Of a stretch of DNA of 64,000 nt, positions 11,536 to 19,786 are shown piece after piece; position 1 is the first letter of the stretch; each line of letters opens with the position of its first letter. The stretch lies in the NCBI GenBank assembly GCA_963704165.1, contig CAVPHD010000008.1, positions 1 to 64,000 of the forward strand, given 5' to 3'. The position numbers and the translations under genes are program-made. The stretch comes from an uncultured delta proteobacterium (lineage in GTDB: Bacteria > Myxococcota_A > UBA9160 > SZUA-336). A model generated the notes under the pieces. It did no database searches and had not been told where the DNA came from. It saw nothing but the letters and a program-made list of their open reading frames with translations.

Positions 11536-13875
11536 ATGGCGCGCGCGTCCGCGAACTTCCTGCGTGATGTAGGACGGCTGCTCACTCGCAGCCACGATCT
11601 CGAGGAGACACTCGAGAACGTCGTTCGCCTGGTCGCACGCTGGATGCACGCCTCCGCGTGCTCGATCTACGTGCTCGAAGAGGATGGCGAGACACTCGTT
11701 CTGCGTGCGACGCGCGGCCTGAATCCGGCGGCCGTCGGCCGGGTGCGCATTCGCGTGGGGCAGGGCATCGCCGGCCGCGCGCTCGAGCAGCGCGAGACGA
11801 TCGCGGTGCCGGACGTGCGTCTCGAGCCGCGCGTGCAGGCGGTGGCGCTCTCCGGCGAGCAGCGCTTCCGTTCGCTCGTCGCGGTTCCGCTGCTGGTCCG
11901 CGACGAGCCCGTGGGCGTGCTGACGGCACGCACCGCGCGGGTCCGCGTCTTCCCACGCGCGCAGCTCGAATTGCTCGAGATGATCGCCGCTCAAGTCGGC
12001 TCGATCGTGCTGAACGCGCAGCTTCTCGACCGGGCCCTCCGTGAGCGCGCACCCGGCCGGTCGTTCGTCGCGCGGGCGCCGGAGCCGCCCGCGCGAGGGA
12101 CCGTGCTGCGCGGCGTGGGCAACTCGCCCGGGATCGCGCGCGGACGCGTGCACCTGATCGCAAAGCGGCTCGACGTGGCCGCGATCGACTATCAGCCTGC
12201 GCGCACGGCTGCGTCCGAGTGGCGCGCGGTGCAACGTGCGCTTCGCGAGACCGTGCGGCAGTTGAACGATCTGCGCGGGGCCGTCGGCGACCGCTTCGGC
12301 GAAGAGCTCGCCGACGTCTTCACGACGCACATCATGGTGCTCGAGGACCAGGGATTTCGCGCCAAGCTACGTCGTGGCATCGATCGCCACGGCAATGGCG
12401 CTCGTGCGCTGGTCGATACGATGCAAGGCTACGCCGCGATCTTCGCCGCGACACCGGACGAGACCGTGCGCGAGCGTGCCGCGGACATCGAGGACGTTCT
12501 GCAGCGAGCCGTCGGTGAGCTCGTCGGCGTCCGGCTGCACAACCCGCCGCTGCGAAACGGCGTGATCGTCGTCGCAGAGCAGATCGCGCCGAGCGAGTTC
12601 GTGCTGCTCGAGACCGAGAAGATCGCGGGGATCGTCACCGAGCATGGCGGGCCGACCAGTCATGCGGCGATCTTCGCGCGATCGCTCGAGATTCCCGCGG
12701 TTTCCGGTGTTCCGGGCATCGCCAACCGATTGCGCCCCGAAGACCAGGTGATCGTGGACGGCCTCGAGGGCGTCGTGATCGCCAACCCGACTCGCCCGCA
12801 ACGCGCCGAGTACGCCGTGATCTCCCAGCGCTACCACGCGACGCGTGGCCGACTCGACGAGTTGCGCGGACTGCCGAGCGAGACGCGCGACGGCCGGAAG
12901 ATCCGACTGTCGGCGAACGTCGGCGGGCTCTCCGATCTCGACCTGGTCAAGCGCTATGGAGCCGAGGGAATCGGATTGCTGCGCACGGAGGTGTACGCGC
13001 TCGGGGCCCGCGGGTTGCCCGAGGAAGACGAGCAACACCGCGCCTACCTGCGCGTGGCCGCGCTGATCGCTCCCGACCCGGTGGTGATCCGCTGCTTCGA
13101 CCTCGGAGGCGACAAGGCACTTCCAGGCGAGTCGATCCGCGAAGCCAACCCGCAGCTCGGCTGGCGCGCGATCCGCATCCTGCTCGACCGTCCGGAGCTG
13201 TTCCGCGCGCAGCTCCGAGCGATCGTCCGAGCGAACGTGCACGGCAACCTCCGCATCATGCTGCCGATGATCGCCTCGCTCGACGAGCTCGAGGCGTCGC
13301 GCGCGCACCTTCGGGCCGTCTGCGCGGAGCTCGGTGCGACGGCGCCACCGCTCGGTGTCATGATCGAGACACCCGCGGCGGTCGTGATCGCGCATCATCT
13401 GGCCAACCAGTCGGACTTCTTCTCGATCGGCACGAACGACCTGATGCAGTACACGCTCGCGACCGATCGCGAGAACGAGCGGGTCGCCACGATCTACGAT
13501 CCGTTCCACCCAGGCGTGCTCGCGCAGATCCAGCGCGTGGCCGACGTCGCGCGCGAGTTCGGCCTACCGTGCTCGGTCTGCGGCGAGCTCGGCGGAAATC
13601 CGATCGCGGCGCCGCTCCTGATCGGGATGGGAATCGAGGAGCTCTCGATGGCGCCGTTCTCGACGCTCGCGTTGCGCCAGGTCGTGCGCGGAACCGACGC
13701 GGCCGCGATGACGGCCTGCGCGCGTGAGATCGCGGGCGCCGCCCGCGGAGGCGACGTGCGCGAACGTCTCGCACAGACCTACGAGTCTCTCGGCCTGCTC
13801 GCCGACCCCGATCTCGGTCCTCTGATGCGACATCTGCTCGGCTCGCGCGTTGACAGGCGAGAGAGCCCCCGATAG
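11536..13875 (+). CDS. ptsP: PEP-protein phosphotransferase with N-terminal GAF domain (EI-Ntr)
   Basis: GAF domain, GGPTSHAAIFARSLEIP active His, GIGLLRTE, FDLGGDK, DFFSIGTNDL.QY, VCGELGG. Confidence 0.93.
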   Translation: MARASANFLRDVGRLLTRSHDLEETLENVVRLVARWMHASACSIYVLEEDGETLVLRATRGLNPAAVGRVRIRVGQGIAGRALEQRETIAVPDVRLEPRVQAVALSGEQRFRSLVAVPLLVRDEPVGVLTARTARVRVFPRAQLELLEMIAAQVGSIVLNAQLLDRALRERAPGRSFVARAPEPPARGTVLRGVGNSPGIARGRVHLIAKRLDVAAIDYQPARTAASEWRAVQRALRETVRQLNDLRGAVGDRFGEELADVFTTHIMVLEDQGFRAKLRRGIDRHGNGARALVDTMQGYAAIFAATPDETVRERAADIEDVLQRAVGELVGVRLHNPPLRNGVIVVAEQIAPSEFVLLETEKIAGIVTEHGGPTSHAAIFARSLEIPAVSGVPGIANRLRPEDQVIVDGLEGVVIANPTRPQRAEYAVISQRYHATRGRLDELRGLPSETRDGRKIRLSANVGGLSDLDLVKRYGAEGIGLLRTEVYALGARGLPEEDEQHRAYLRVAALIAPDPVVIRCFDLGGDKALPGESIREANPQLGWRAIRILLDRPELFRAQLRAIVRANVHGNLRIMLPMIASLDELEASRAHLRAVCAELGATAPPLGVMIETPAAVVIAHHLANQSDFFSIGTNDLMQYTLATDRENERVATIYDPFHPGVLAQIQRVADVAREFGLPCSVCGELGGNPIAAPLLIGMGIEELSMAPFSTLALRQVVRGTDAAAMTACAREIAGAARGGDVRERLAQTYESLGLLADPDLGPLMRHLLGSRVDRRESPR

Positions 13876-13878
13876 CGT
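13850..13878 (+). promoter_or_regulatory. Sigma70-type promoter of fur
   Basis: TTGACA (13850-13855), 17 nt, TAGCGT (13873-13878), 8 nt before the ATG. Confidence 0.6.
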
Positions 13879-13886
13879 GGCCGACG

Positions 13887-14336
13887 ATGCCACCCGGGAG
13901 TGATTCCGACCGGCGCGCCCACAAGAAGATGTCGGATCACCTCTCGCGCCACGGTCTGAAACAGACGCGTCAGCGCGAGGCGATCCTCGACGCCTTCCTC
14001 GCCGCGAAGGGCCACGTGACGAGTGAAGAGCTCTACGAAGCGGTGCGCGTGCACAGCCCCGCCCTCGGTGCGGCGACGGTATACCGTGCGTTGAAGCTCT
14101 TCTGTGAAGCGGGAGTCGCGCGCGCGCATCACTTCCGCGACGGCATCACGCTCTACGAGCGCGAAGGCCATCATCACGACCACCTGATCTGTCAGGGCTG
14201 TGGGGCGATCGTCGAGTTCGAGCGCGACACGATCGAAGAGGAACAGCTCAAGGTCGCGGAAGAGCACGGCTACGTGCTCACGCAGCATCGGCACATCCTC
14301 TACGGGATCTGCCCGAGGTGCCAGAAGAAGCACTAG
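13887..14336 (+). CDS. fur: Ferric uptake regulator family protein
   Basis: GLKQTRQREAIL, ATVYRALKL, HHHDHLICQGCG, HILYGICPRC. Confidence 0.92.
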   Translation: MPPGSDSDRRAHKKMSDHLSRHGLKQTRQREAILDAFLAAKGHVTSEELYEAVRVHSPALGAATVYRALKLFCEAGVARAHHFRDGITLYEREGHHHDHLICQGCGAIVEFERDTIEEEQLKVAEEHGYVLTQHRHILYGICPRCQKKH

Positions 14337-14953: not shown

Positions 14954-15687
14954 CACCACCGCCCTGAAGCGCCGCCGCCGCCGAAGCCGCCGCCGCCGCC
15001 CGAGAATCCACCCCCGCCGAATCCGCCTCCGCGCGGGAACACTCCGCCCGTACCGCCCCGGTGCCGCGTGCGCGGCCCGCCGAAGGCGGGCGCGAAGAAG
15101 AATCCGCGCAGCAGCATGGTCCCGACGACGAACGCGATCCAGAGCCCCACCACCCAGAGCGGTGCGCCTTGTCCTTCTCCGCGCGAGGGCACGGGAAGAT
15201 CCTCGCCCGAGATCCGATCGAGGATCGCGCGCGTGCCCGCCTCGACGCCGCGGTCCATCCGACCGGCCCTGAATTCCGGAAGGATCCACTCGCGAATGAT
15301 GCGCGCGGCGATCACGTCGGGCAGCACACCTTCGAGTCCGTAGCCGACCTCGATCCGCACCTGCCGCTCGTTCGGCGCGACCGTCAGGATCACGCCGTTG
15401 TCGAGGCCCCGCTGTCCGACCTTCCACGATTCCGCGATCTGGATCGAGTAGTCCTCGATCTCGAGCTGCTCGAGCGAGGGCGTGATGTGCACGACGACCT
15501 GATGACCCTTCGTGCGCTCGAACTCGACGAGCCTGGCCTCGAGCGCGCGCGCGTCCTCCGCGCGAAGCAGACCGGCCCGATCGAGTACGTGCGCACGCAG
15601 ATCGGGAATTTCGAGCGCGCGCACCGTCGGCGCGAGCAGGAGAAACGCGAACGCGCAGAGCAAGGCGCGCGCCGGACTCGTGCTCAG
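14953..15687 (-). CDS. TPM domain protein (YgcG-like) with Gly-rich tail
   Basis: WKVGQRGLDNGVIL, VRIEVGYGLEGVLPD, GGGFSGGGGGFGGGGASGRW; start CTG 15687 or TTG 15663. Confidence 0.9.
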   Translation of the reverse strand: MSTSPARALLCAFAFLLLAPTVRALEIPDLRAHVLDRAGLLRAEDARALEARLVEFERTKGHQVVVHITPSLEQLEIEDYSIQIAESWKVGQRGLDNGVILTVAPNERQVRIEVGYGLEGVLPDVIAARIIREWILPEFRAGRMDRGVEAGTRAILDRISGEDLPVPSRGEGQGAPLWVVGLWIAFVVGTMLLRGFFFAPAFGGPRTRHRGGTGGVFPRGGGFGGGGFSGGGGGFGGGGASGRW

Positions 15688-16274
15688 AATTTCACCTCGG
15701 GTGGCGCTTCCGCGCCGGCCGTGGCTTCGAACGTCGGACGCGGTTCCGCACCCAGGATGAAGCGCGCGGTCAGGTTCGTCGGGAAGAAGCGCACGAGCTT
15801 GTTGTACTCGGCGACGGCCTCGACGTAGCGCTTGCGAGCCACCGTGACGCGGTTCTCGGTGCCTTCGAGCTGGACCTGAAAATCGCGGAAGGCCGCGGTC
15901 GCCTTCAGATCGGGGTAACGCTCGACGACGACGAGCAGGCGCGAGAGCGCGCTCTGGAGCGATCCCTGCGCGGCCTGCAGCTTCGCGAACGCCTCGGGGT
16001 CGTCGAGCACGCTCGCGTCCATCTTCACGCTCGTCGCGCTCGCGCGCGCCTGGATCACGGCTTCGAGCGTCTCCTTCTCGAAGTTCGCCGCGCCCTTCAC
16101 GGTGCTCACCAGGTTCGGGATCAGGTCGAGCCGCCGCTGGTACTGGTTCTGGACCTCGGCCCAGGCGGCCTTGACGTTCTCGTCCGCTCCCTGGATCGAG
16201 TTGTAGCCGCACCCGGAAACCAGCGTCGCGAGCAGGACGAGCGCGCAAGCCATTGAACGGTTTGGGTTTTTCAT
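15684..16274 (-). CDS. lemA: LemA family lipoprotein
   Basis: LVSGCGYN, AWAEVQNQYQRRLDLIPNLV, ERYPDLKA, LEGTENRVTVARKRY. Confidence 0.95.
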   Translation of the reverse strand: MKNPNRSMACALVLLATLVSGCGYNSIQGADENVKAAWAEVQNQYQRRLDLIPNLVSTVKGAANFEKETLEAVIQARASATSVKMDASVLDDPEAFAKLQAAQGSLQSALSRLLVVVERYPDLKATAAFRDFQVQLEGTENRVTVARKRYVEAVAEYNKLVRFFPTNLTARFILGAEPRPTFEATAGAEAPPEVKF

Positions 16275-16318
16275 GCCGCCGAGAATACCGTCGCGGCCCC
16301 GTGAGGCAAGATCGTAGT

Positions 16319-16333
16319 TGATAGTCATTCTCA
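16319..16333 (+). promoter_or_regulatory. Fur box overlapping the bfd -35 element
   Basis: TGATAGT-C-ATTCTCA vs 7-1-7 consensus TGATAAT-N-ATTATCA (2 mismatches); overlaps TTGATA (16318-16323), 17 nt, TACGCT (16341-16346). Confidence 0.8.
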
Positions 16334-16353
16334 TCTAGCGTACGCTCCCGGCC

Positions 16354-16575
16354 GTGATCGTCTGCAGCTGCCACGGCGTGACCGACCACGAGATCCGCTC
16401 GGCGGTGGACTCCGGCGCGCGCACGCCACGCCAGGTCGCCGCGACCTGTCGCGCCGGCTCGTCCTGTGGCGGCTGTCTCGCGACCGTGGTCGAGATCCTC
16501 TCCGAGTCGCAATACGAGCGCCGACCGGTCGCGTCGATCTCGGTGGACGAAGCCCGAGACCTCGTCTCCGCGTAG
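16354..16575 (+). CDS. bfd: Bacterioferritin-associated ferredoxin-like [2Fe-2S] protein
   Basis: MIVCSCHGVTDHEIR...AGSSCGGC pattern. Confidence 0.88.
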   Translation: MIVCSCHGVTDHEIRSAVDSGARTPRQVAATCRAGSSCGGCLATVVEILSESQYERRPVASISVDEARDLVSA

Positions 16576-16615
16576 CGCTTGCTAAGCTCGAACTCCCGGT
16601 CCAAGGGAGGCACGC

Positions 16616-16957
16616 ATGGCGAAGCGAATCGACTGGCACTACCAGCGCAACGGTTGAACGAGTTGTACCCGGGCGTCCAAGTTTCTGGACGCGAACAAGC
16701 TCGTCGCAGCCGAGACCGTGTCCGCGAGCCAGAAGCTCGGTCAGGCCGACGCAGCTCGGCTCGTGAAAGCGGCCAAGCAGGTGATCGTCGCGAAGGGGAA
16801 GCTCGTGCGGACGTTCGCACCCGGTGGGAAGGCGCCGGCCGAGATCGTCGAGGCCGTTCTGGGCCCGACCGGAAACCTGCGCGCGCCCACGCTCGTCGTC
16901 GGCGACAAGCTGCTCGTCGGCTGGAACGAAGAGGCCTATCGCGCAGCGCTGCTTTGA
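16616..16957 (+). CDS. ArsC-like thioredoxin-fold selenoprotein (UxxC)
   Basis: RBS AGGGAGG, ATG 16616, MAKRIDWHYQRNG-TGA(16655-16657)-TSCTRASKFL...LGPTGNLRAPTLVVGDKLLVGWNEEAY in one frame. Confidence 0.85.
16673..16692 (+). promoter_or_regulatory. Putative bacterial SECIS hairpin
   Basis: GCGTCCA-AGTTTC-TGGACGC 7-bp stem; loop begins 22 nt after UGA with G at loop position 2. Confidence 0.65.
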
Positions 16958-16964
16958 GCGGGCC

Positions 16965-18113
16965 GTGCAGCTCTCGCGCGTGACGCTGCGCGAGCACCTC
17001 GTCGGGGAGCTGCTTCCGCTCTGGGAGAGGCACGGCCTCGATCGGGTGCGCGGCGGGTACTGGAATCGGCTCGGCCCCGACCTGCGTCCACTCCTCGACG
17101 GTCACAAGCGTCTGCTCGTGCACGCGCGCCAGATCTTCGCGTTCACGCGCGGCGTCGAGCTGGGCGCGGGCGCGTGGGCGCGCGCGGCCGCCGCGCACGG
17201 ACTCGAGTTCCTCGTCTCGCGATTCAGGGATACGCGTCACGGCGGCTGGTTCACGAGCACCGATGACGCGGGCGCGCCGCTCGACCGGCACAAGGATCTG
17301 TACGGCCACGCGTTCGTGATCTTCGCGCTCGCGCATCACCACCGCGTCTTCGGCGAGCCGGAGTCGGCGCGACTCGCGCGCGAGACGCTCGGGCTCGTGT
17401 ACGAGCGCTTGCGAGATCGCGTTGCGGGCGGGTTTCTCGAGGGCGCGAGCGAGGACTGGAAGCCGATCGCCGGACCGCGCCGCCAGAATCCGCACATGCA
17501 CCTCGTCGAGTCGCTGCTCGCGCTCGACGAGATCGGGTCGGACGCCGACGCACTTCGCGAAGCGCACGCGCTCGTCGAGCTTCTCGGCGCGCGTTGGATC
17601 GACGCGCGGACGGACGCGCTCGGCGAGCACTTCGACCCGAGCTGGCAGCTTCTCGCGGGCGACGTCGGACGAATCGTCGAGCCCGGCCACCACTTCGAAT
17701 GGGTCTGGCTGCTCGACCGGCTCGACGCGCGCGAGCCGAGGGAATCGACGCGGGCGCTGGCCCGACGGCTTTTCGACTTCGCGCGCCGATTCGGCGTCGA
17801 TACGGACGGCGGTGTCCTCGATCAGGTCGATCGCGTCGGAAACCCGCTCGCGACCGGCAAGCGCCTCTGGCCGCAGACCGAACGCGTGAAGGCGCTGGCC
17901 GCGCGCGCGCATGCGACGGGCGACGCCGATCTGCGTCGCGAGCTCGACGCGGGTCTCGGGTACTGCTTCGCACGCTACGTCGATCCGGCCACGCGCGGCT
18001 GGCACGAGCAGCTCGCGCGCGACGGCAGCGTCGCGTCCGAGGCCCAGAACGCGACCAGCGTCTATCACGTGGTGTCCGCGATCTGCGAGGCGATCGAGAC
18101 GATCGACACCTGA
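16965..18113 (+). CDS. AGE family epimerase/isomerase (N-acylglucosamine 2-epimerase/mannose-6-P isomerase-like)
   Basis: RLLVHARQIFAF, DLYGHAFVIFA, QNPHMHLVE, EPGHHFEWVWLL, RLWPQTE, TSVYHV. Confidence 0.9.
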   Translation: MQLSRVTLREHLVGELLPLWERHGLDRVRGGYWNRLGPDLRPLLDGHKRLLVHARQIFAFTRGVELGAGAWARAAAAHGLEFLVSRFRDTRHGGWFTSTDDAGAPLDRHKDLYGHAFVIFALAHHHRVFGEPESARLARETLGLVYERLRDRVAGGFLEGASEDWKPIAGPRRQNPHMHLVESLLALDEIGSDADALREAHALVELLGARWIDARTDALGEHFDPSWQLLAGDVGRIVEPGHHFEWVWLLDRLDAREPRESTRALARRLFDFARRFGVDTDGGVLDQVDRVGNPLATGKRLWPQTERVKALAARAHATGDADLRRELDAGLGYCFARYVDPATRGWHEQLARDGSVASEAQNATSVYHVVSAICEAIETIDT

Positions 18114-18337
18114 GGCGCGGTTCGGGAGCTCTTCTCTTCTCCCATTCTGCGTCTGAATTGCACGCCGTCTGCCTTCGCTTCGATCTCCGTGGCGATCGCT
18201 GCGATCGCGGAAGTGCGTCGAGTGGCCACACAGTAGAGAACGGATCCACGGAATGACTTGCGCATCGCGTGAGATTCACTGACTCGAGGGGAGTTCCCTC
18301 TGGTAAGATCCACAGTCCGATTCATTGGAGATGCTCG

Positions 18338-19786
18338 ATGAGCCCAAGCCGAGTGTTCAGGGGCGGATGTGCAGGTCTGGTCTGTGCCCTGCTGATCGCA
18401 GGTCTCGCGTGGCCGATCGGAGCCCATGCGCAGGTTCCGAATCGCATCGACTACCAGGGACTGCTGCTCGATTCGGGCGGCCTCGCGATCAACGGCAGTC
18501 AGACGCTCACGTTGCGGATCTGGGACGACGCGGCGTCGGTCGCGCCGGCGTCGCTTCTCTACGAGGAGATCCATCTCGGCGTGCTGGTGACGGACGGGGT
18601 CTTCGACGCCCAGATCGGAGCGGGCACGGCCACGGTCAACGGCGTGTACACGGTCTTCAGCGAGCTGATCTTTCAGGGGCCGAACCGCTGGCTCGAGGTT
18701 CGTGTCGGATCGGAGACGCTCTCGCCGCGGCAGCCGTTCGGCTCGACGGCTTACTCTCTTCAGTGTCAGAACGCGATCAGCGTCGTGAACAGCAGCATCG
18801 GCTCGAGCTCGATCGCCGACGGCTCGATCCAGGCGGCCGACATCGACTCGAGCCAGGTCCAGCAGCGCGTCTCGGCGAGCTGTCCCGCGGGGCAGGCAAT
18901 TCGCAGCGTCGCGTCGAGCGGCGCCGTCACGTGTGAGTCGACGCTGGGCGTCGGGGCGAACAGCGTGATCTCGAGCTCGATCGTCGATGGCGCGATCCAG
19001 GCGGCCGACGTCGACTCGAGCCAGGTCCAGCGGCGCGTCTCGACGAGCTGTCCCGCGTGGCAGGCGATTCGCAGCATCGGTTCGACGGGCACCATCACGT
19101 GTGAGTCGACCCTGAACGTCGGGCCGGACACCGTGACCTCGAGCTCCGTCGTCGACGAAACCATCACGGCTGCCGACATCGGGCCGTCGGGCGTAGGCAA
19201 TACGGAGCTGAACGCCAGCCACGCCTACACCGTCGGCGGGATGACGGTCAACGGGCAGCTTGCAGTCAACTCGGCGGCCGACGTCGTGATCCGAGACGAT
19301 TCGAATGCCTTCCGCTGGTACGACAGTGCAGGTGTGACCCAGCACGGTGCGGTGTGGGTAAGTGCATTCGAGAATCAGTTCTACGATTTCAACCAGGGTC
19401 GCAGCATCTTTCTTTCCAACGCCGACGGCATTGGAATCGGCACGAGTTCGCCGGTATCGGGGTATACCGTCACCGTTCCCAGCCTGCGGGTCAGCGGCAA
19501 CTCGAGTGTCGGCCTCACGCAGGTGGGCGCGAGCTATGCCGTGAGCGCGGCCGTTGCTTCCTGTCACTCCCATGGGAATCTGCCCTGTTATGAGGGCAAC
19601 GGCACCGTCACCTGCCCCGTGGGTACCCGCGTGGTCGGAGGGGGTGCCGCCGGCGTCGGTGTCGGTTCGCGCTACGGGTCGGTCGGGTCCAGCTATCCGT
19701 TGAACTCGACCCAATGGCGCTGTTCCTCGACGTACGACCTCTCGACGAGCCACTGGTGCTACGCGATCTGCGCGCGGCTCGAGTAG
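18338..19786 (+). CDS. Secreted fibre/adhesin-like protein with internal repeats and Cys-rich C-terminal domain
   Basis: Signal peptide AHA|QVP, IDYQGLL...DGVF...WLEVRV...LSPRQ...AYS head, 56-aa repeats, C-terminal CPVGTRVVGGG...SYP...W.C...YAIC. Confidence 0.7.
   Translation: MSPSRVFRGGCAGLVCALLIAGLAWPIGAHAQVPNRIDYQGLLLDSGGLAINGSQTLTLRIWDDAASVAPASLLYEEIHLGVLVTDGVFDAQIGAGTATVNGVYTVFSELIFQGPNRWLEVRVGSETLSPRQPFGSTAYSLQCQNAISVVNSSIGSSSIADGSIQAADIDSSQVQQRVSASCPAGQAIRSVASSGAVTCESTLGVGANSVISSSIVDGAIQAADVDSSQVQRRVSTSCPAWQAIRSIGSTGTITCESTLNVGPDTVTSSSVVDETITAADIGPSGVGNTELNASHAYTVGGMTVNGQLAVNSAADVVIRDDSNAFRWYDSAGVTQHGAVWVSAFENQFYDFNQGRSIFLSNADGIGIGTSSPVSGYTVTVPSLRVSGNSSVGLTQVGASYAVSAAVASCHSHGNLPCYEGNGTVTCPVGTRVVGGGAAGVGVGSRYGSVGSSYPLNSTQWRCSSTYDLSTSHWCYAICARLE
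18803..19180 (+). repeat. 168-bp (56-aa) intragenic tandem repeat, ~2.3 copies
   Basis: TCGAGCTC anchors at 18803, 18971 and 19139; SSSI.DG.IQAAD.DSSQVQ.RVS.SCPA.QAIRS. Confidence 0.9.

Follow-up and report, generated by a model that had tools for sequence, protein, structure and literature searches.

The window, by which we mean the whole stretch of 64,000 nucleotides that was analysed, carries a short gene with an in-frame TGA between a gene for a bfd-like ferredoxin and a gene for a sugar epimerase. The features of the locus are the following.

13887..14336, + strand: fur-family regulator gene (PF01475, 114 bits), 2 kb upstream; candidate binder of the Fur-like box
15684..16274, - strand: lemA, divergent, then two TPM-domain genes (context only)
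16315..16336, no strand assigned: Fur-like box that overlaps the -35 predicted for bfd (TTGATA, 16318-16323)
16341..16346, + strand: predicted -10 of bfd (TACGCT), downstream of TTGATA by 17 nt and ending 7 nt short of the bfd GTG; leaderless type
16354..16575, + strand: bfd-like [2Fe-2S] ferredoxin, 73 aa (PF04324, 57.4 bits, cut-off 26)
16580..16588, + strand: predicted extended -10 (TG-n-TAnnnT; here TG-n-TAAGCT), 27 nt before the ATG, for a selenoprotein-epimerase transcript
16603..16610, + strand: Shine-Dalgarno sequence AAGGGAGG, preceding the ATG at 16616
16616..16957, + strand: ArsC-family selenoprotein gene (NF041106), 113 aa, U14-T-S-C17
16655..16657, + strand: in-frame TGA, predicted selenocysteine codon (codon 14)
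16673..16692, + strand: predicted bacterial SECIS, a hairpin of 7 bp whose 6-nt loop has G-U at its positions 2-3; distance from the UGA, 22 nt
16965..18113, + strand: AGE-family (N-acylglucosamine 2-epimerase superfamily) sugar epimerase/isomerase, 382 aa (PF07221, 240 bits)

From the ATG at 16616 the frame runs through 13 codons to the TGA at 16655-16657, continues with T-S-C, passes through GNLRAPTL and LLVGWNEEAY, and ends at the TGA at 16955-16957. The gene is separated by 40 nt from the end of bfd (16354-16575) and by 7 nt from the GTG of the epimerase (16965). The first-pass annotation had described these elements together with the ribosome-binding site and the U-T-S-C motif, and all were correct on re-reading the sequence, as was its remark that the ORF caller gives a 79-aa piece alone (16718-16957). 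With the TGA taken as a sense codon, the protein reaches 110.9 bits against the NCBIfam model NF041106 'ArsC family (seleno)protein' (cut-off 85), covering positions 1-107 of 107, and it contains the UxxC motif with a single Sec; the truncated piece scores 65.7 bits. The proposal that the gene encodes an ArsC-like UxxC selenoprotein of a known family is supported. In their 2008 paper, Zhang and Gladyshev gave 'Arsenate reductase 2', UxxC, with 42 sequences (PMC2398784), and Table 1 of a 2026 review lists NF041106 (ArsC_rel_Se_1) as 'Arsenate reductase-like protein, UxxC, predicted', citing that paper (PMC13188914). The selenoprotein family was thus already published in 2008, and the window gene is a further member. 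To judge by record titles, the closest named records are from Myxococcota, Myxococcales or Deltaproteobacteria, and homologues also occur under Spirochaetales, Gammaproteobacteria and Binatia. Only 3 of the 120 homologues listed are full length and most database forms are truncated, which calls for a correction of annotation, as gene callers truncate the NF041106 family. A single record (L091/L094) holds two copies of the selenoprotein gene, with TGA in both. A literature search, limited in extent and no proof of absence, returned no paper tying selenoproteins to bacterioferritin-associated ferredoxin or to Myxococcota.

The source genome, which is 84% complete, encodes selA, selB and selD with scores over cut-off as well as tRNA-Sec(UCA), and the check on selA, selB, selC and selD that had been advised thus found the complete selenocysteine machinery. 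Conservation was followed in two overlapping sets, one of 61 genomes and one of the best 80 out of 566 loci from all species. NF041106 is matched in 34 of the 61 genomes, each time with a TGA in the matching stretch, which in G040 is broken into two pieces, and the TGA is kept in every one of the best 80 loci. The advised search for homologues with Cys aligned to the TGA also succeeded, since the natural homologues P0008 and P0023 (identity 62% and 56%) carry Cys in this column; P0039 has Trp there, likely a miscoded TGA. Across the 61 genomes the selenoprotein gene is present in 34 of 49 selA-positive genomes versus 0 of 12 selA-negative ones. Within the genus, 5 of 12 genomes possess both the gene and selA and 7 possess neither. 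On an epimerase tree of 25 of the 27 epimerase loci (two partial loci were excluded), the seven selA-less genomes form one clade (100/99), and the joint loss of selA and the gene in the genus therefore counts as one event, not seven.

Two further candidates came to light beside these comparisons. The selD gene of the source genome (G000:C3:421287-422210, L004) has its own in-frame TGA and a GTT-loop hairpin at a similar distance, and is likely a second selenoprotein of the genome. Near a homologue in genus g8 there are two adjacent ORFs (L019:101-745 and L034:132-776), the second matching iodothyronine deiodinase (PF00837), and the pair is possibly another selenoprotein split at TGA.

The first-pass annotation had also noted a 7-bp hairpin at SECIS distance, and this was confirmed; its loop begins 22 nt downstream of the UGA. 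The bSECIS model, as given in the 2026 review, comprises a 3-9 nt loop, a 4-16 bp stem, a G in the first two loop positions, a distance of 16-37 nt from the UGA and an MFE of at most -7.5 (PMC13188914). The window hairpin lies within all of these ranges: its loop has 6 nt with G in second place, its stem has 7 bp, the UGA is 22 nt away, and a 46-nt piece folds with -13.1 kcal/mol. Its folding energy is ordinary (z -0.3 to -1.2), and folding of the single sequence does not single out the SECIS. It is the comparison of 27 orthologues (the window and 26 of 29 others) that is telling: all 189 of 189 stem cells are paired, a value reached in none of 500 shuffles, and slid controls pair 22-37%. Compensatory change is seen at 2 of the 7 pairs, a number of pairs with two-sided change that 65 of 500 shuffles also reached. 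All seven stem pairs are present in 76 of the best 80 of the 566 loci, and the codon for Ser21, a four-fold site, is TCC in 25 of 25 orthologues of equal length. A search of Rfam over 15800-18600 gave nothing meaningful (three matches, E 1.4-4.5, far below gathering). From these observations we infer that the codon-14 UGA is almost certainly decoded as selenocysteine. For a family known as predicted only, a well-conserved SECIS and natural Sec/Cys pairs are now supplied.

The structure model of the 113-aa protein has a pLDDT of 93.9. Its fold matches are 3gkx (Z 9.1, rmsd 2.8, 89 residues aligned), YffB 1rw1 (8.2, 3.7, 87), 3l78 (7.9, 3.1, 87) and the putative arsenate reductase 3rdw (7.8, 2.5, 87); Z values near 8-9 are middling, and glutaredoxin-like and GST chains rank behind the ArsC/YffB/Spx-type folds. 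A profile search of the protein places 2m46 first and Spx chains just after (E 8e-6). The protein is basic (pI 9.9), and in the orthologue alignment R11, K40 and R89 are invariant and K60 and K62 near-invariant, a pattern that suggests an anionic partner. The genome encodes gshB and trxB. The NF041106 protein is most likely a housekeeping Sec/Cys thiol oxidoreductase of the ArsC/YffB/Spx fold. SelB with tRNA(Sec) would bind the hairpin 22 nt downstream and selenocysteine would be inserted at the UGA; Sec14, at the start of helix 1, would act as the attacking nucleophile, and Cys17 would resolve the intermediate to give a selenenylsulfide, which the glutathione or thioredoxin reductase system of the cell could then re-reduce. 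The protein probably acts on a protein disulfide or on the adduct of a low-molecular-weight thiol, in line with proposals for YffB-type proteins; arsenate is probably not its substrate.

The genes around the selenoprotein gene tell of a more local history. The epimerase falls under all three specific NCBIfam cut-offs, and an epimerase of this type (E 1e-30, window query) is found in 26 of 31 genomes of the family versus 0 of 29 other members of the class, usually behind bfd. Among 27 epimerase loci the selenoprotein gene adjoins in 7 (in G003 the contig ends right after the selenoprotein gene), and in 13 bfd stands directly before the epimerase with no selenoprotein gene. The conserved pair is bfd and the epimerase, often without the selenoprotein gene. 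In G007 bfd and the Fur box are lost and the selenoprotein-epimerase pair is kept, and in G012 this pair is inverted and faces bfd. In three genera (g1, g2, g13) bfd and the epimerase flank the selenoprotein gene, and this linkage is old. Outside the family of the window the neighbours are mutually unrelated and, in a scan covering 24 of 108 predicted neighbours, range from endonuclease III-like proteins and DUF423 to hydrolases and a solute symporter, among others. The advised check on neighbourhood conservation was negative: just 6 of the 80 loci, all from one family, have bfd inside a distance of 3 kb. The selenoprotein tree is poorly resolved for the most part and fits a gain at the locus as well as repeated moves away. 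Further downstream, at 18269-19786, the window contains a long ORF whose start resembles a signal peptide; it carries internal repeats (SSSIxDGxIxAAD...) and has no Pfam match at E 0.001.

How the gene may be transcribed can be judged from promoter motifs. In the source genome TAnnnT is enriched 6-9 nt before the ATG, with 76, 49, 33 and 44 genes at these positions vs 1.4 expected per position (1,949 ATG genes from rough gene calls), and many genes look leaderless, bfd being one candidate. The extended form TGnTAnnnT has 283 sites in the genome on both strands, one of them in the 40-nt gap between bfd and the selenoprotein gene. TAnnnT occurs just after the bfd stop in 11 of 11 bfd loci of the genus and also ahead of the gene in G007, which lacks bfd. 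In the seven selA-less relatives the motif resembles a leaderless promoter: six have it 6-7 nt ahead of the epimerase ATG, and one has it 10 nt ahead. It is likely, as far as such motifs tell, that the selenoprotein gene has its own promoter and is cotranscribed with the epimerase. A scan with the sigma-70 consensus, which is too strict for the TAnnnT sites of this genome, gave 0 promoters. Terminator prediction found none between bfd, the selenoprotein gene and the epimerase, so read-through from the bfd promoter is possible. G027 and G030 have no TAnnnT within 60 nt upstream of the selenoprotein gene, and because in G030 the gene moreover begins 25 nt after bfr, it may there be read from the Fur-boxed promoter. 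Taken together, we consider it probable that the window gene is an NF041106 member whose UGA is very likely Sec, encoding a small predicted thioredoxin-fold thiol oxidoreductase, likely cotranscribed with the epimerase from its own promoter and belonging to no dedicated iron module.

The first-pass annotation had suggested an undescribed iron-responsive redox module, and its report of a Fur box before bfd was borne out. In such a module Fur would repress a bfd-selenoprotein-epimerase operon, and the selenoprotein would assist Bfd (and Bfr) in releasing iron or in holding down the oxidative stress that results. A Fur-like box that agrees with the Fur consensus at 13-16 of 19 positions precedes bfd in all 19 bfd loci examined. 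The box of the window is the top match of the genome (35 bits) for a matrix built from 17 relatives without the source genome, and it looks real. The next three matches (15-17 bits; G000:C4:476975, C4:328614 and C4:88535) precede genes whose translations, read by eye, point to a FeoB-like GTPase, a porin/FMN-binding/ApbE-like cluster and a likely cytochrome c peroxidase beside a PerR/Fur-like gene. Bfd and the selenoprotein gene share a strand across the short gap in which no terminator is predicted, fur lies 2 kb upstream, and G030 has the order bfd-bfr-selenoprotein-epimerase, all of which speak for the module. The bfd-like protein itself is under the NF007803 bfd cut-off (30.1 vs 75). At 11536-14336 a ptsP-like gene (GAF plus PEP-utiliser) is followed by the fur-family gene, and several genera of the family keep ptsP-fur close to bfd, whether or not the lemA-TPM block intervenes.

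Against the module, a Fur-like box lies within 500 nt in just 4 of the 80 loci, all of them, like the six with bfd nearby, in the family of the window. The selenoprotein gene has a predicted internal promoter ahead of it, the selenoprotein-epimerase pair is uncoupled from the box in G007 and G012, and three genomes (G017, G024, G029) have both bfd and the selenoprotein gene at separate places. In the source genome bfr stands alone elsewhere (G000:C7:191062-191532, L074), with neither bfd nor a Fur-like box in front. Because of the scarcity of such loci, the bfd-epimerase pairs that lack the gene, the arrangement in G030, the uncoupling in G007 and G012 and the gene's own promoter motif, the reach of the Fur box over the selenoprotein gene is doubtful. 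The box most likely controls a leaderless bfd message, and some low-iron read-through from bfd into the selenoprotein gene may occur but would be incidental. An iron-responsive module of this kind is thus unlikely. The related claim that the gene stands where bfr usually sits found no support, and a replacement of bfr by the selenoprotein is rejected, because in G030 bfr and the selenoprotein gene are side by side.

Another reading is that of an Spx-like regulator, whose U-T-S-C would sense oxidation and whose basic protein would bind RNA polymerase or DNA and alter transcription. It draws on the Spx chains directly behind 2m46 in the profile search, on CTSC being Spx's own motif, to which U-T-S-C aligns, on the near-invariant K60 and K62 opposite Spx R60 and K62, and on the high pI. 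The subfamily cd03032 we take to be that of Spx. In the 2008 paper the UxxC 'arsenate reductase 2' is placed under cd03032 (PMC2398784). The scores, however, are far under the family cut-offs (TIGR01617 20.3 vs 75; NF002459 19.6 vs 123). The central part of Spx is helical, whereas that of the window protein is modelled as a beta-hairpin (55-67). The RPI of Spx is replaced by A-P-T (R-A-P-T in the window protein). Gly52 of Spx, described as a contact to the RNA polymerase alpha-CTD (PMC4180751), is placed opposite a gap of 4 residues by the HMM alignment, which is weak here. We regard an Spx-like role as rather improbable, and give still less credit to the wider proposal that NF041106 proteins are Sec-switched Spx-like regulators outside Firmicutes, not enzymes, placed here behind the bfd(-bfr) promoter under Fur control so that a Sec redox sensor would rise when iron is scarce. 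The family would gain greater importance if it were a Sec-based Spx-like regulator or iron-regulated, and the evidence leans against both.

A true arsenate reductase, which the family name and the fold match to 3rdw would invite, is very unlikely. The catalytic motif of classical ArsC is HX3CX3R (PMC3169414), and the window protein has Q10-x3-U14-x3-T18; H occupies position 10 in most orthologues and R occupies position 18 in 0 of 24, and classical ArsC is rejected on this motif. PF03960 scores 20.7, under its cut-off of 24, and no ars genes adjoin in the window or among the neighbours scanned (24 of 108 predicted). The ArsC triad Arg60/Arg94/Arg107, placed by way of Spx rather than E. coli ArsC, would fall on K60 and A90, with the invariant R89 one residue earlier.

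A final alternative is that translation truly stops at the TGA, or that the TGA arose as a pseudogene lesion or through faulty sequencing, leaving the 79-aa piece or no product. The mostly truncated database forms are in its favour. It is rejected with practically no reservation, given that 80 of 80 loci share the TGA, that conserved residues and a ribosome-binding site lie 5' of it, that the SECIS covaries, that the machinery is complete and that the gene depends on selA.

Compared with known systems, the window protein, read as a selenocysteine-containing thiol oxidoreductase, shares with the NF041106 family the whole-model score over cut-off, UxxC, one Sec, the GNLRAP motif and the length. 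It has no difference from the family at the protein level; what is particular is its neighbourhood only, with bfd and the epimerase, which is specific to the bacterial family. The YffB/ArsC-related proteins (1rw1, 3gkx, 2m46) are its best fold and profile matches and have in common with it a thioredoxin-like core with an insertion and a conserved Pro motif, while identity in the fold matches is 17-23%, the insertion is shorter in the window protein, and its UxxC contrasts with the single Cys of Brucella YffB (PMC3169414). Spx and MgsR (1z3e, 3l78; TIGR01617) share C/U-T-S-C, the basic residues at R60/K62 and the fold class, and the window protein differs in lacking the Gly52 loop in the alignment, in its replaced RPI and in its low family scores. 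The bfd-bfr locus is an iron-storage locus under Fur control. Here too a bfd-like ferredoxin follows a Fur-like box, and bfr follows bfd in G030, whereas in the source genome bfr is located elsewhere and the selenoprotein, which adjoins bfr in G030, is unrelated to it.
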